This document shows, in pieces, positions 4,545 through 17,502 of a stretch of 34,273 nt of DNA (its first letter is position 1; each line of letters starts with the position of its first letter). A program made the position numbers and the translations under genes. The notes below the pieces were generated by a model. It did no database searches, was not told where the DNA came from, and saw nothing but the letters and a program-made list of their open reading frames with translations. Source of the stretch: a virus; UHGV virus genome UHGV-0115609; one strand, given 5' to 3'.

Positions 4545-4693
4545 TTCCATACATCTCATTAGCTTTTATGGGTGGCTTCCTTATCGGCTTCGGCATCTGT
4601 CGTGATTTAATTAAGCAGGAACTTAAAACCAAAACACTGTGCATCGGAAAGCGTGTGTATCGGGTAGTTCATGAAACAAAGGTTAGAAAATGA
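4541..4693 (+). CDS. Small predicted membrane protein (50 aa; below the ORF-track cutoff)
   Basis: ATG 4541 preceded by AGGAGTG; hand translation MIPYISLAFMGGFLIGFGICRDLIKQELKTKTLCIGKRVYRVVHETKVRK with a hydrophobic N-terminal segment; ATGA overlaps with both flanking genes. Confidence 0.45.
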   Translation: MIPYISLAFMGGFLIGFGICRDLIKQELKTKTLCIGKRVYRVVHETKVRK

Positions 4694-4980
4694 GCAATTT
4701 AACTTCTTGGGACTGGTGGTTGGCCACCTATTTCTTAGCGGCCGGAGTCGCATTCGCCTTTTACGTAGGTCAGTTAGTCGTAAAACTGTTGCTGATAAAA
4801 TTTGCTAGTCATAAACGTATCGATGATGGTCTGTGGCGTCTTGGCACCCTGGTGGAAACTCGCTACGGGCAACTTAAGGAGAACGAAACCATTACTATCC
4901 AAGCGAAACGGTTCACTGCCACCATCACAAGAACACCTAGTCGTAGAGTGGCCTTGATCAAAAAAGTCACAACCGAATAA
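4690..4980 (+). CDS. Hypothetical membrane protein (96 aa)
   Basis: N-terminal hydrophobic helix WWLATYFLAAGVAFAFYVGQLVV; coupled to the upstream small ORF. Confidence 0.55.
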   Translation: MSNLTSWDWWLATYFLAAGVAFAFYVGQLVVKLLLIKFASHKRIDDGLWRLGTLVETRYGQLKENETITIQAKRFTATITRTPSRRVALIKKVTTE

Positions 4981-5185
4981 AAATACAATGATAAGTATTT
5001 ACTTACTTATCTTTTATGTATAAGATGACTTTGTTTTCGTTGAGACGCGACTGTTTGAACTTAAATACAAGTGCAAACGAAGAAGTCTATCTGGCAGTAG
5101 CCTAATAAGCCAAACACCAGCGAGGTCAGTTTCCAGCCTCGTTACCGAAATGGGACACACTGAGCGAGTGTGATTGCAGAACGCA

Positions 5186-5209
5186 GGAGGGAACATTCAT
5201 GTTCCCTCC
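5186..5209 (+). other. Perfect hairpin GGAGGGAAC-ATTCAT-GTTCCCTCC (9-bp stem)
   Basis: Directly visible inverted repeat in the non-coding leader of the tRNA cluster; encloses a GGAGG...ATG arrangement. Confidence 0.5.
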
Positions 5210-5370
5210 GATGAAGTAACAGAATGGGCGGTTGGTATATTTTCAACTCCATATGACTCCCGGATTCTTAGCCACTGACCGCCCATCCTGTTACGTCATT
5301 TTGTTCAATTATGTCGTTTATACTGGGTTAAAAAGCGGCGACGTAGCCCGGCTGGTATGGTTAGCCAGCA

Positions 5371-5492
5371 CACAACGTTGAGGCCATTACATTTTTATCA
5401 ATTCTAAGGTTCTATTCACAGAGATACCGGCGAGCGTTGATATGTAACATGTTGGGCAAACATTCAATCGGAGTAGTGGCCTCAACGTTGTG
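5371..5492 (+). ncRNA. Long hairpin H1 (stem about 20 bp, loop about 82 nt) in the tRNA-cluster leader
   Basis: Left arm CACAACGTTGAGGCCATTAC (5371-5390) pairs with right arm GTAGTGGCCTCAACGTTGTG (5473-5492) with one G-U-type mismatch. Confidence 0.45.
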
Positions 5493-5758
5493 AAGACAGG
5501 ATTGTTGTGTAGGTTTAACCACTGTTGCCATTGGTGCCTGTTTTCACAACAAATGATTCCATACATCACATTGTATAAATTACAAAGTAGGTGCTGTCCT
5601 CAGAAACATCATCTACTTAAAGATTTTGCCTTCTACTATTGAGCGAAGTCGAAAGCGTCTGGCACTAACGAAAAGTGCAAGTAGCGGTGCGTTTCCTGGC
5701 AGAAACTAAACCGTCGCGATTGGCACTGTTGAGTAATAAATACTGGCAGTGCTGAATT

Positions 5759-5833
5759 GATGGTGTAGCTCAGCGGTAGAGCAGTTGGCTGTTAACCAAC
5801 TGGTCGGTGGTTCGAATCCACCCACCATCGCCA
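5759..5833 (+). tRNA. tRNA-Asn (anticodon GTT)
   Basis: Cloverleaf by hand: acceptor GATGGTG/CACCATC, D-arm GCTCAGCGGTAGAGC, anticodon stem GTTGG/CCAAC with loop CTGTTAA, T-arm GGTGG-TTCGAAT-CCACC, discriminator G, encoded CCA. Confidence 0.85.
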
Positions 5834-5838
5834 ATTTA

Positions 5839-5925
5839 GGGGAGTTAGTCCGTAGGGGCAGCGGGGTAGACTGTAAATCTACTGTCATTGCGACTCGGGT
5901 GGTTCGACTCCATCACTCCCCACCA
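5839..5925 (+). tRNA. tRNA-Tyr (anticodon GTA), type II with long variable arm
   Basis: Acceptor GGGGAGT/ACTCCCC, anticodon stem GTAGA/TCTAC with loop CTGTAAA, long variable arm, T-loop TTCGACT, encoded CCA. The anticodon arm closely resembles E. coli tRNA-Tyr. Confidence 0.75.
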
Positions 5926-5929
5926 AATT

Positions 5930-6005
5930 GCCGGTTTAGCTCAGTTGGTAGAGCGCCTGCCTTGTAAGCAGGATGTCAGCGGTTCGATCCCGTTAACCGG
6001 CACCA
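5930..6005 (+). tRNA. tRNA-Thr (anticodon TGT)
   Basis: Acceptor GCCGGTT/AACCGGC, D-arm AGCTCAGTTGGTAGAGC, anticodon stem CCTGC/GCAGG with loop CTTGTAA, T-loop TTCGATC, encoded CCA. Confidence 0.8.
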
Positions 6006-6006
6006 A

Positions 6007-6095
6007 CACAACAGGTAAGAGCATTGGGCGAATCGGCGATACTGACCCACAAGCCCGTAAATCGATAGAGTCAGACCAGTGCTCTTACCGTTGTG
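6007..6095 (+). ncRNA. Long hairpin H2 starting 1 nt after the tRNA-Thr CCA
   Basis: Left arm CACAACAGGTAAGAGCATTGG (6007-6027) pairs with right arm CCAGTGCTCTTACCGTTGTG (6076-6095), with one bulge and one mismatch. Confidence 0.45.
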
Positions 6096-6145
6096 AGGAA
6101 GTGCAGCTCTTTGAAGCAACCAGAAGATAAGCATCTGGCTTCACA

Positions 6146-6228
6146 ACACAACGATAAGATCATTACGGTTAATCGTCGTTCATGTGCACAATGACTGGTC
6201 GAAAGGTAGTGATCTTACCGTTGTGGTG
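6146..6228 (+). ncRNA. Long hairpin H3, paralogous to H2
   Basis: Left arm CACAACGATAAGATCATTAC pairs with right arm GGTAGTGATCTTACCGTTGTGGTG; shares the CACAAC...GTAAGA...CGTTGTG framework with H2. Confidence 0.4.
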
Positions 6229-6369
6229 GATTCGCAGACTGATGCGATAGCTTTCTTGGATGTTAGGGAAATGCGGCCGCAAATCTTCCCTTTCGCGAGC
6301 GGTGATCGTCCGTAGTCCTAATTGGCTGCACCGTATGCCGGAGATTCAGTACCGGCCACCACAACGGCC

Positions 6370-6456
6370 GGAGAGTAGGGAGCATGGTGCTCAAGCGGTC
6401 TTGAAAACCGTCCCATTGCGCAAGCGATGATGGTTCGATTCCATTACTCTCCGCCA
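6370..6456 (+). tRNA. tRNA-Ser (anticodon TGA), type II with long variable arm
   Basis: Acceptor GGAGAGT/ACTCTCC, anticodon stem GCGGT/ACCGT with loop CTTGAAA, long variable arm, T-loop TTCGATT, discriminator G, encoded CCA. Confidence 0.75.
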
Positions 6457-6457
6457 G

Positions 6458-6537
6458 ACACAGCGTTGAGCGGTTTGGCCTTTTAATCACCCAGATTAAG
6501 ACTCCGCTAACATAAACCAGACCGCTCAACGCTGTGA
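6458..6537 (+). ncRNA. Long hairpin H4 starting 1 nt after the tRNA-Ser CCA
   Basis: Left arm ACACAGCGTTGAGCGGTTTGG (6458-6478) pairs with right arm CCAGACCGCTCAACGCTGTGA (6517-6537) with one mismatch; the arm sequence resembles H1. Confidence 0.45.
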
Positions 6538-6611
6538 TAGACAATTACGGCAGACGTTCTTAACCATAGCTTGCTAACATCCTAGCAACACTTTTTTTCA
6601 GCGCAAAATTC

Positions 6612-6636
6612 AAAGGGGCTTCGGCCCCTTTTTTGC
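6612..6636 (+). terminator. Rho-independent terminator closing the tRNA region
   Basis: AAAGGGGC-TTCG-GCCCCTTTTTTG: GC-rich stem, tetraloop and T-tract. Confidence 0.8.
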
Positions 6637-6677
6637 AACTGAAAGAGTCAAGTCTACGAACTTTGTAGGAAGAAATA

Positions 6678-7028
6678 ATGACCAGCAAAGATAACACACC
6701 ACTAAAAGTCACCCCTGAACACATTGAACAACTCATTCAAAGTGAACATTATTTCACTGCATATGATGCCAGCCACGGGGATAACTTCATCTCCGTTTAC
6801 AATTCAAAAACAGATATCGACAAATGTCATGAGTCGTTAAAACTCTTAACGTTCTGCGTTATGGTTCTCAAAAATGGATATACCGTAACGGGAAAATCTG
6901 CGTGCGTAAGACCAGAAATCTTCAACTTTGATGTTGGTCGCGAGTACGCTCGAAAAGATGCTATCGATCAAATCTGGCCCCTGGAAGGCTATCTCCTGAA
7001 GCAAAAGTGGCATGAGGCAAAGCAATGA
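6678..7028 (+). CDS. Hypothetical protein (116 aa)
   Basis: ORF with RBS-like GGAAG upstream of the ATG; its stop overlaps the start of the glutaredoxin gene. Confidence 0.55.
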   Translation: MTSKDNTPLKVTPEHIEQLIQSEHYFTAYDASHGDNFISVYNSKTDIDKCHESLKLLTFCVMVLKNGYTVTGKSACVRPEIFNFDVGREYARKDAIDQIWPLEGYLLKQKWHEAKQ

Positions 7029-16686: not shown

Positions 16687-16957
16687 AGAATTATGGCGCT
16701 TGTTGAGGAAGTCACTCCTCTTACGCACTTTGTTTTGCCATGCCGGCAGTTAGCTTCTGCCTTTGACTATTCATGCGGCAACCCCGCATTTCGCCACAAT
16801 GGGCAATTCACTTTTATGGAATAAACTGGCCGTTGTGTCGATTTAATTAGCATGGCCTTACCATGCTAATTTATTCAACTTGTACAATCCTACAAATCTA
16901 TCCACTCAGGCTTACACCGTCTTCGTTATTGTAGAAATGAGGATCATCAGCGTTGAA

Positions 16958-17173
16958 TCAGCTTAGAGCAACGACATTTGCTGCTGCTGGGCCTTTAGCA
17001 CCATTCTCGATAGAGAATTCGACCTGCTGGCCTTCTTCCAAAGTGCGGAAATTATTACTCTGAATTGCCGAAAAATGTACAAAAACATCTTTACTGCCAT
17101 CAGCAGGAGAAATAAAGCCAAAGCCTTTATCAGAGTTAAACCATTTTACTAAACCAGTCATTTTATTAGACAT
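16958..17173 (-). CDS. Cold-shock protein, CspA family (71 aa)
   Basis: [38 protein letters not shown]... carries the RNP1/RNP2 motifs (KGFGFI, VFVHF) and is near-colinear with E. coli CspA. Start at ATG 17173 with RBS AAGAAGG; the longer ORF-track start is rejected. Confidence 0.9.
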
Positions 17174-17502
17174 AGATATTACCTTCTTAATTTTGTGAGC
17201 CACATAGTGCGGCGAGAATTTGATCTGTATAGATTGGGACTTACTTAGGCACTTAAGGAGGAGACTCACGAAGAAGGGAAATCAGAAGATAACACTGAAC
17301 TGAGACTGCTTTACTAAAACTGCTTACATAAGGTCTGTCTTGCAAACCAACGATGCTATTAACGCATACCCCTTCTTTTCATGCAACCTTTATTTTTCAA
17401 AGATAACTAATTTTTGTCACCATTGGTTTAGTAAACGTTAACGAACCAGACGATGCCAGACACCTTTACAGAGAACAGATGCCCGCCAATTGGCGGGCAT
17501 CA

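Follow-up and report, generated by a model that had tools for sequence, protein, structure and literature searches.

Between positions 4,981 and 6,677 of UHGV virus genome UHGV-0115609, which was analysed as one stretch of 34,273 nucleotides (nt; hereafter the window), transfer RNA (tRNA) genes are interspersed with long imperfect hairpins. The window is an SSU5-like phage-plasmid, with best matches to Escherichia phage CMS-2020a (98.6%) and Cyrano (98%). No credible open reading frame (ORF) was found on either strand of this 1.7 kb region, which is flanked by + strand genes. Neighbouring genes are annotated in relatives as DNA ligase, a Gp49-family protein and glutaredoxin. The hairpins are best explained as transcribed RNA modules of one non-coding operon, located roughly at 5030–6634 on the + strand. 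In this operon a leader would be followed by tRNA-Asn, tRNA-Tyr and tRNA-Thr, further modules, tRNA-Ser and a terminator. Hairpins with CACAAC at the 5' end and GTTGTG at the 3' end were designated A-type, and those with the inverse polarity B-type. The z-scores compare RNA folding with 200 dinucleotide shuffles. The features of the operon, with their evidence in brackets, are:

5211–5299, + strand: H0, a fifth long hairpin of the family, 22 bp (inverted repeat, z −5.3)
5371–5492, + strand: H1, A-type (inverted repeat 5371–5390/5473–5492, fold)
5487–5550, + strand: H1b, B-type (inverted repeat, z −3.2)
5759–5833, + strand: tRNA-Asn (ARAGORN, Rfam tRNA)
5839–5925, + strand: tRNA-Tyr (ARAGORN, Rfam tRNA)
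5930–6005, + strand: tRNA-Thr (ARAGORN, Rfam tRNA)
6007–6095, + strand: H2, A-type, after tRNA-Thr (inverted repeat plus base, fold)
6090–6147, + strand: S, short B-type module of 58 nt (homology to other phages)
6147–6225, + strand: H3, A-type (inverted repeat 6144–6166/6206–6228, fold)
6218–6367, + strand: M, long B-type module closed by CCGTTGTGGTGG / CCACCACAACGG (inverted repeat, fold, homology)
6370–6456, + strand: tRNA-Ser(UGA) with a tRNA-Sec-like shape (ARAGORN, Rfam)
6459–6536, + strand: H4, A-type with base CACAGC/GCTGTG (inverted repeat 6459–6478/6517–6536, fold)
6612–6634, + strand: intrinsic terminator AAAGGGGC TTCG GCCCCTTT plus a T run, operon end (read in the sequence, folded)

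Hairpins and modules of the operon

The first-pass annotation had reported four hairpins, H1 to H4, with the common stem base CACA(A/G)C...G(C/T)TGTG. All four inverted repeats were present, with z-scores of −4.5 to −11, and the stem base was as described. The folding energies of H1, H2, H3 and H4 were −47.8, −37.3, −31.8 and −41.2 kcal/mol, with z-scores of −6.8, −6.2, −4.5 and −11.1, respectively, and no shuffle folded as well as the native sequence. The stems of H1–H4 were 20–22 bp long. H1 and H4 each had 20 nt arms with 95% complementarity, enclosing a structured loop of 82 nt in H1 and a loop of 38 nt in H4. The two arm subfamilies of the earlier description were also recovered, H1/H4 with GTTGAG and H2/H3 with [A]GGTAAGAG / GATAAGAT. 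The H2 stem reads CACAAC-A-GGTAAGAGCATTGG / CCAGTGCTCTTACC-GTTGTG and is of the same type as a hairpin in the late leader of phage lambda. When the whole 34 kb window was scanned for CACAAC-type and GTTGTG-type ends with an arm duplex energy of −24 kcal/mol or better, H1–H4 were the sole sites that passed, in one cluster, and all of them were more stable on the + strand.

H1 lies in the operon leader, as had been noted. The claim that H2 and H4 begin 1 nt past an encoded CCA held for H2 (CCA at 6003–6005, A6006, C6007); H4 begins 2 nt past the CCA of tRNA-Ser (CCA at 6454–6456, G6457, A6458, C6459). H3 does follow H2 in order, with the 58 nt S module (6090–6147) standing between them. The 3' arms of the window hairpins are flanked by AGG, GTG, AAG and ATA. 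H0 and the B-type modules at 5487–5550, 6090–6147 and 6218–6367 had not been part of the first description. The H0 stem is ATGAAGTAACAGAATGGGCGGT / ACCGCCCATCCTGTTACGTCAT, and its position corresponds to that of the P1/D6 leader hairpin CACAACAGGTAAGGGCGCTGG. Orthologues of H0 with differing yet complementary stems were found in SSU5, a Klebsiella phage, P1 and D6. H1 orthologues in SSU5 and a Klebsiella phage carried compensatory changes, and H4 was kept in Cyrano and a Klebsiella phage.

In each of the B-type modules (5487–5550, S and M), the GTTGTG box is also part of the 3' arm of the hairpin before it. The S module has the layout GTTGTGAGGAAG...CCAGAAGATAAGCATCTGG...CTTCACAAC and is homologous to 58 nt directly upstream of an N-like gene in P22-like phages. 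Its closing stem covaries, being GATGCGATG/CATCGCATC in SPN9CC and GTTGTGGTG/CACCACAAC in Sasha. The P22-like phages with this arrangement were SPN9CC (locus L010, 1501–1558, equivalent to window 6092–6149), epsilon34 and g341c, in which the module lies 22 nt ahead of the start codon of the N-like antiterminator gene. In lambda, the corresponding position is taken by the RNase III-sensitive N-leader structure. A nut site (boxA/boxB) was considered for S and rejected, as the boxA-like GCTCTTT was not kept in the Sasha, SPN9CC and Klebsiella copies.

The M module appears architecturally related to the prophage small RNA (sRNA) family STnc100, a relation that is real only for B-type modules and stays below threshold. 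STnc100 (RF02076) scored 33.4–39.6 bits on the B-type modules of P1, D6 and an IMG/VR prophage, against a gathering threshold of 47. On the P1 and D6 M modules the alignment covered model positions 31–147, with the closing stem UGGUG...CACCA and both inner hairpins. The window's own M gave no STnc100 match at E<5, and the A-type hairpins were never matched by this model.

A stem family across enterobacterial phages

Sequence comparison places H1–H4 in a widespread, unannotated family of predicted phage RNA stem modules. In an alignment of 42 distinct stems over 18 pairs, the base was conserved as YRYAAC/GUURYG, with pairs 4–6 essentially invariant (A-U, A-U and C-G). The top was conserved as CAYUG/CAGUG, where pair 17 is U.G or C-G and pair 18 is U-A, and the middle, pairs 7–16, varied with compensation. 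Double-sided changes occurred in 15 of the 18 pairs, and 115 double-change cells were counted vs 25 in shuffles. Overall, 96% of the cells were paired vs 35–56% with the partner slid, a figure that is partly circular because the stems were picked for pairing. An unfitted MAFFT/RNAalifold alignment of orthologues recovered the stem with three compensatory pairs. The folding and covariance comparison across relatives that the first-pass annotation had proposed found the pairing conserved, with compensatory changes.

Carriers of the family include P1, P7, D6, lambda, an N4-like phage, Phapecoctavirus, Sashavirus and lambdoid Klebsiella phages; a query free of tRNA sequence recovered individual modules in unrelated phages, and lambda was reached through matches to an exact-stem pattern. 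The ban operons of P1, P7 and D6 hold three or four of these hairpins, which overlap the ORFs plp and upl annotated on the other strand. In lambda, an H2-type hairpin (44787–44862) directly follows the tR' terminator of 6S RNA, and a B-type module (44857–44941) lies upstream of the lambda S gene, so that both modules stand between tR' and that gene. The lytic Phapecoctavirus has an H2-like and H3-like pair directly after tRNA-Thr in a tRNA cluster, in the lambdoid Klebsiella phages H3 and M stand ahead of tRNAs or in the stretch between Q, a tRNA cluster and the holin gene, and Sashavirus has H2 plus S after the capsid gene, with no tRNA nearby. The N4-like phage carries H2 with M, and Jedunavirus carries M alone.

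The exact-stem pattern was matched in at least 120 IMG/VR contigs and in 38 species-representative genomes, 17 of them Enterobacterales; the family is thus present in at least 17 Enterobacterales species. The remaining 21 of the 38 genome matches were lambda DNA contamination, 99.6–100% identical to lambda 43800–45600, in assemblies of Pseudomonas, Bradyrhizobium, Enterococcus, Kitasatospora, Segatella and others (low-coverage contigs, L141–L176). An H2-to-M query matched 696 of 5,426 complete E. coli genomes (about 13%), mostly on plasmids, and the NCBI annotation pipeline (PGAP) had annotated nothing at the family sites in E. coli genomes. Gathering and permissive Rfam searches of the window and 12 related loci returned no family for the A-type hairpins, and the stem sequence strings were not found in the literature searched. 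Among the IMG/VR matches listed, a tRNA lay within 1 kb of 37 of the 122 copies and none within 1 kb of the other 85, while only 5 of the 122 started within 5 nt of a tRNA end. The tRNA 3'-end-specific placement proposed at first was therefore not borne out. Settings away from tRNAs include the lambda late leader, the position after the Sashavirus capsid gene and the leader of the window's own operon. Annotated hypothetical ORFs overlap hairpins, tRNAs or 6S RNA, mostly on the opposite strand: P1 plp and upl (L001, 1575–2144), lambda orf-64 (L178, 822–1016) and Cyrano CYRAN_40 (L003, 2384–2596). These four are probably not genes.

The loops proved far more variable than the stems that enclose them. 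Among the matches listed, one exact stem carried 68 distinct loops of 35–64 nt, which formed 35 unrelated clusters at 70% identity, and an identical loop can occur in different stems. The earlier proposal of a duplicated structured element was too narrow: the stems form a common scaffold with unrelated loops in many phage families. The loop domain of H2 recurs in a Klebsiella phage-plasmid, where it is closed by the unrelated stem GACACCG/CGGTGTC, and loop domains are therefore modules in their own right. The recurring inner domain is GAATCGGCGATAC.G.CCCACAAG.CCGTAAATCGA.AGAG (window 6030–6078 vs Klebsiella L004 1440–1500), and the Klebsiella copy lies just upstream of tRNA-Asn. The H3 loop is conserved in Phapecoctavirus and Klebsiella phages, with the inner hairpin kept through a change of CAT/ATG to CCT/AGG.

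T-arm-like elements were present in 8 of the 68 loops vs 0.16 expected by shuffling, again among the matches listed. In the P1 hairpin after tRNA-Thr (L001, 1606–1692), the loop has a D-arm-like GCGA-CGTCGGAGA-TCGC and a T-arm-like GAGGG-TTCGAAT-CCCTA, and this loop and several IMG/VR loops resemble tRNA elbows. Y RNA (YrlA, RF02553) was considered for this P1 loop and rejected, with no match on any hairpin at E<5; the sole weak YrlA match spans two true tRNAs, and the YrlA stem consensus is unrelated to CACAACAGGUAAGAGC. CRISPR-like guides were likewise rejected, as a blastn-short search of the 68 loops against all related loci, a small database, returned family hairpins only.

Among the IMG/VR matches listed, tRNAs within 1 kb were always co-oriented with the hairpin (37/37). 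In the 25 hairpins that could be oriented by tRNAs, the arm duplex was more stable on the sense strand in 20, and 43 G.U pairs were counted on the sense strand vs 22 on the other. No target-site duplications flanked the copies inspected in the window and in P1 and related loci. Because of the tRNA co-orientation, the sense-strand stability, the G.U excess and the lack of target-site duplications, we favour a function in the + strand transcript, as RNA rather than DNA.

Whole modules were present or absent between plasmids of about 98–99% identity, with all junctions in the CACAAC/GTTGTG boxes. The arrangement was Thr/Ser in Cyrano, Thr-H3-M-Ser in pMRY16-002_2 and Thr-H2-S-H3-M-Ser in the window, and strain 3385 had the window arrangement with a P1-type M instead. 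We read this module gain and loss as apparent recombination at short conserved sequences, not as transposition. The miniature mobile elements suggested in the first-pass annotation agree with these results in the gain, loss and swapping of modules at the boxes, but not in mechanism, as neither target-site duplications nor an associated transposase was found.

RNase III and rival readings of the stems

On balance, we consider it probable that the stems are processing sites of host RNase III in a polycistronic non-coding RNA operon, a reading drawn from the sequences and their comparison. Each module would consist of a clamp stem of about 20 bp with fixed geometry around an exchangeable inner RNA domain. 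RNase III would cleave both arms co-transcriptionally, which would part the tRNAs from the adjacent modules, leaving short tRNA 3' trailers to be trimmed by exonucleases, and would free each loop domain as a small capped hairpin RNA. The identical stems occur in unrelated phage families with no obvious phage protein in common and with common Enterobacterales hosts. We infer a host factor because the carriers share these hosts and not obvious phage proteins, and host RNase III is the most likely reader because of the 23S-like base duplex, the fit to the in vivo cleavage motif and the lambda precedent taken together.

E. coli rrlH is flanked by GG-GTTGTGA-GGTTAAGC at the 5' side and AACCTT-ACAAC-GCCGAAG at the 3' side, which as RNA read ...CGG-GUUGUGA-GGUUAAGC and ...AACCUU-ACAAC-GC, respectively. 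RNase III cuts pre-23S RNA at +7 from the mature ends on the 5' and 3' sides (PMC8708148). These cuts fall exactly at the edge of the GUUGUGA/ACAAC duplex, which is the base duplex of the hairpins. The S module starts with CCGTTGTGAGGAAGTGC (CCGUUGUGAGGAAGUGC), compared with GGGTTGTGAGGTTAAGC in rrl. The 16S site CUGUGUG/CACACAG carries a box akin to the hairpin base, and the lambda N-leader stem GGUGUGUG...CACACACC carries a related GUGUG/CACAC box.

In a transcriptome-wide in vivo motif (PMC6212723; W = A/U, S = G/C), the two base pairs between the RNase III cuts were mostly G-C or C-G and the four central positions preferred WSSW. Counting outwards, the fourth pair on either side (D/D') was A-U or U-A. 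Pairs 14 and 15 of the aligned stems were G-C or C-G in 35 of the 42 each, and pairs 13 and 16 were mostly A-U. Pair 11 was A-U or U-A in 41 stems and pair 18 was U-A in 35, and the A-U pairs at both positions hold in each independent stem type, including H0, H1, H3 and H4. The stem length also fits the substrate requirement of RNase III, about two helical turns or at least some 20 bp. In lambda, processing of the Q-dependent late transcript by RNase III was reportedly described by Daniels et al. 1988 (Virology 167:568, PMID 2849240), a study listed among the references of PMC7547250.

The lambda late-leader hairpin is the closest known counterpart of H2, sharing the stem CACAAC-A-GGTAAGAGCATTG...CAGTGCTCTTTCC-GTTGTG, the following B-type module with its shared GTTGTG box and a location in a non-coding stretch of a long phage transcript. 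It differs in having no tRNA close by and in its location, which is downstream of tR' and ahead of the lysis genes. The E. coli pre-23S stem resembles the hairpins in having a GUUGUG(A)/(UU)ACAAC duplex directly beside the cuts, and the pre-16S stem in its CUGUGUG/CACACAG box. In both settings a polycistronic non-coding transcript yields tRNAs and structured RNAs by excision, which for the hairpins is a prediction. In contrast to the A-type hairpins, the arms of the rRNA stems are 1.5–2.9 kb apart and enclose rRNA, and the box polarity relative to the enclosed domain is opposite.

Hairpins cut by RNase III in phage polycistronic RNA are textbook knowledge from T7 and lambda, and this is the known class that the window hairpins would join. 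The T7 early and late mRNA sites and the lambda N-leader, sib and cIII sites are intercistronic hairpins of about two helical turns that are cut by the host enzyme. They match the hairpins in length and in their location in phage polycistronic RNA, but have small loops and form no cross-phage sequence family with swappable loops. T4 species 1 and 2 (rnaC and rnaD) are small stable RNAs co-transcribed with tRNAs and processed by the host, and RNase III accepts species 1 RNA as a substrate in vitro. They are likewise structured non-tRNA RNAs inside a phage tRNA operon; however, they form no multi-phage family with constant stems, and no sequence kinship is apparent, none having been searched for. 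Novel here is a constant box-bearing stem across enterobacterial phage lineages with swappable loops, alternating polarity and tRNA association, of which no description was found.

Several points weigh against RNase III. The cut register is ambiguous, as the in vivo motif would put the cuts between pairs 13/14 and 15/16, and the 23S analogy where the base box ends on its inner side. In the motif register, the predicted cuts would fall at 5385/5386 and 5479/5480 in H1, 6022/6023 and 6082/6083 in H2, 6161/6162 and 6212/6213 in H3, 6473/6474 and 6523/6524 in H4, and 44802/44803 and 44849/44850 in lambda. The 23S-like register would give cuts immediately 5' of every GUUGUG and 2 nt 3' of every CACAAC in the window, and at 44794/44795 and 44856/44857 in lambda. 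Only 6–7 bp match the 23S box. Most of the WSSW fit comes from the abundant H2-type stems, and H1, H3 and H4 each miss one central position. In lambda, the RNase III sites may be elsewhere in the late leader than in the hairpin. If the cuts were made far up the stem, the tRNA trailer would stay paired with the 3' arm, with no obvious help to 3' maturation. Extreme stem conservation with unrelated loops could come from recent recombinational spread, and the choice of the 42 stems for pairing bears on the share of paired cells given above.

It is unlikely that the stems act instead as uncleaved structural clamps, which would keep neighbouring RNA domains from misfolding or stop exonucleases that run 3' to 5', with the usual formation of tRNA ends by RNase E, RNase P and exonucleases. 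The high stability of the stems, their start 0–2 nt past CCA in several phages and the folding of the loops as independent domains speak for this reading. The placement also parallels the terminator hairpins that often follow E. coli tRNA genes and are removed by RNase E (PMC5291269). Such clamps, however, leave unexplained why the base box and top are conserved in sequence while the middles covary, why the base is identical with the 23S RNase III duplex and why the length is constant at about 20 bp. We also regard as improbable that the modules are precursors of Hfq-dependent sRNAs of the Pas/STnc100 kind, whose loops would serve as seed or cargo against mRNAs of the host or of rival phages, with the stem as scaffold. 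STnc100 and PasD are prophage sRNAs encoded between Q and the lysis genes (bioRxiv 10.64898/2026.05.13.724894). Many copies of the family occupy this same niche, the P1 and D6 M modules, each following an A-type hairpin, align with STnc100 (33–40 bits vs 47, below the gathering threshold), and the combination of one exact stem with 35 unrelated loop families, among the matches listed, would suit a scaffold. On the other hand, the A-type hairpins match no Rfam sRNA family and have no terminator-type 3' end or U-tail, and an sRNA role is compatible with excision by RNase III rather than exclusive of it.

A role at the DNA level, as miniature palindromic mobile elements or as attC-like recombination sites that move cassettes, seems very improbable. 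The presence or absence of whole modules in nearly identical plasmids with junctions inside the CACAAC boxes would fit such elements, as would stems that behave like conserved terminal inverted repeats around variable interiors, and the YRYAAC...GTTRYR ends are reminiscent of integron attC cores, RYYYAAC/GTTRRRY. But the copies inspected lacked target-site duplications, no transposase or integron integrase is common to P1, lambda, the N4-like phage, Phapecoctavirus and the other carriers, and the strict co-direction with tRNAs (37/37 among the matches listed) and the sense-strand G.U excess also speak against it. An integron attC site was accordingly rejected: the cores YRYAAC/GTTRYR break the RYYYAAC consensus, the Thr-H3 junction differs from an attC x attC excision product at G/TT, and the annotations of P1, lambda, the N4-like phage and others held no integrase common to the carriers. 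A miniature inverted-repeat transposable element or repetitive extragenic palindrome was rejected on the lack of flanking direct repeats, the same co-orientation and the single cluster in the window. Cleavage by another host nuclease, namely RNase P with the stem as a mimic of the acceptor/T-stem or RNase E at a single-stranded CCA-N-box junction, is in our view extremely unlikely. RNase P does process long hairpin RNAs, such as the precursors of 4.5S RNA and P1 C4 RNA, the order CCA, 0–2 nt, box recurs in the window, P1, D6, a Klebsiella phage and DE16, and some loops have T-arm-like elements (8/68 vs 0.16 expected, among the matches listed). Against this, no RCCA follows the 3' arms (flanks AGG, GTG, AAG and ATA), most copies are not beside tRNAs, and most loops lack a T-arm.

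RNase III therefore remains the candidate we prefer, and of the first-pass proposal that the hairpins are processing signals defining tRNA 3' ends, processing is the part that is best supported, while the family is not defined by tRNA ends. Beyond processing, a further and doubtful proposal is that the stems serve as a universal cassette holder for expressing and excising fast-exchanged small structured RNAs. Diversifying selection would then act on these RNAs in their role as decoys or regulators in conflicts between phage and host or between phages. The reading is a tentative one and would accommodate the at least 35 unrelated loop families, some of them mimics of tRNA elbows, and the phage-plasmids that combine them with tRNAs and a module resembling transfer-messenger RNA (tmRNA). 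The combination of constant stems and unrelated loops points to an inexpensive way for phages to swap small RNAs. If the stems are RNase III sites, many unannotated intergenic hairpins of P1, lambda, SSU5-like phage-plasmids, N4-like phages and Phapecoctavirus would gain a common explanation, and several annotated ORFs (P1 plp and upl, lambda orf-64 and Cyrano CYRAN_40) would overlap structured RNA. The functions of the loops and of the tmRNA-like tag module would also become testable in the classic systems lambda and P1.

Tag module and other features of the locus

A tmRNA-like tag frame without a start codon lies in the operon leader at 5073–5108 (+). It reads GCA AAC GAA GAA GTC TAT CTG GCA GTA GCC TAA TAA, or ANEEVYLAVA with two stop codons behind it, compared with the E. 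coli tmRNA tag ANDENYALAA, which likewise has two. Counterparts are ANEDTYLAVA in SSU5, ANDNQYLAVA in a Klebsiella phage, ANDDLMMVAA in P1, ANEDRFLMAA in SCNJ1-C and ANDDVILMAA in an N4-like phage, and in the related loci the tags are located at L005 ~2085, L004 ~846, L001 ~1047, L015 ~1390 and L014 ~1213. The Rfam models tmRNA_permuted and beta_tmRNA scored 31.9 bits (gathering score 47) and 26.7 bits, respectively, with the resume-codon context aligned. ARAGORN found no tmRNA gene at default settings and called a permuted tmRNA that includes the tag only when the threshold was set at 60%, and no tRNA-like domain was located for the tag module.

The tRNA-Ser(UGA) at 6370–6456 has a long variable arm, and its D arm consists of a 6 bp stem and a 4 nt loop. 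With the Rfam tRNA-Sec model it reached 46.6 bits (gathering score 47). For its D6 counterpart, tRNAscan-SE had given no amino acid in the D6 record. The terminator at 6612–6634 is a GC-rich hairpin that was not picked up by a simple terminator scanner. A sigma-70 promoter scan of 4600–6800 passed nothing; TTTACT-17-TAAGAT near 5005–5035 was seen by eye as a weak promoter candidate.

A Gp49-family gene (N4 gp49-like) occupies window 6678–7028, just 3' of the hairpin cluster, and such a gene was also downstream in 2 of the 12 sampled IMG/VR prophage contexts, which were otherwise different. Elsewhere in the window, the cspA thermoregulator 5' untranslated region (RF01766) was matched over its full length with 187.6 bits at 16933–17351 (−), which shows that the phage-plasmid carries a predicted cold-shock-type leader there.

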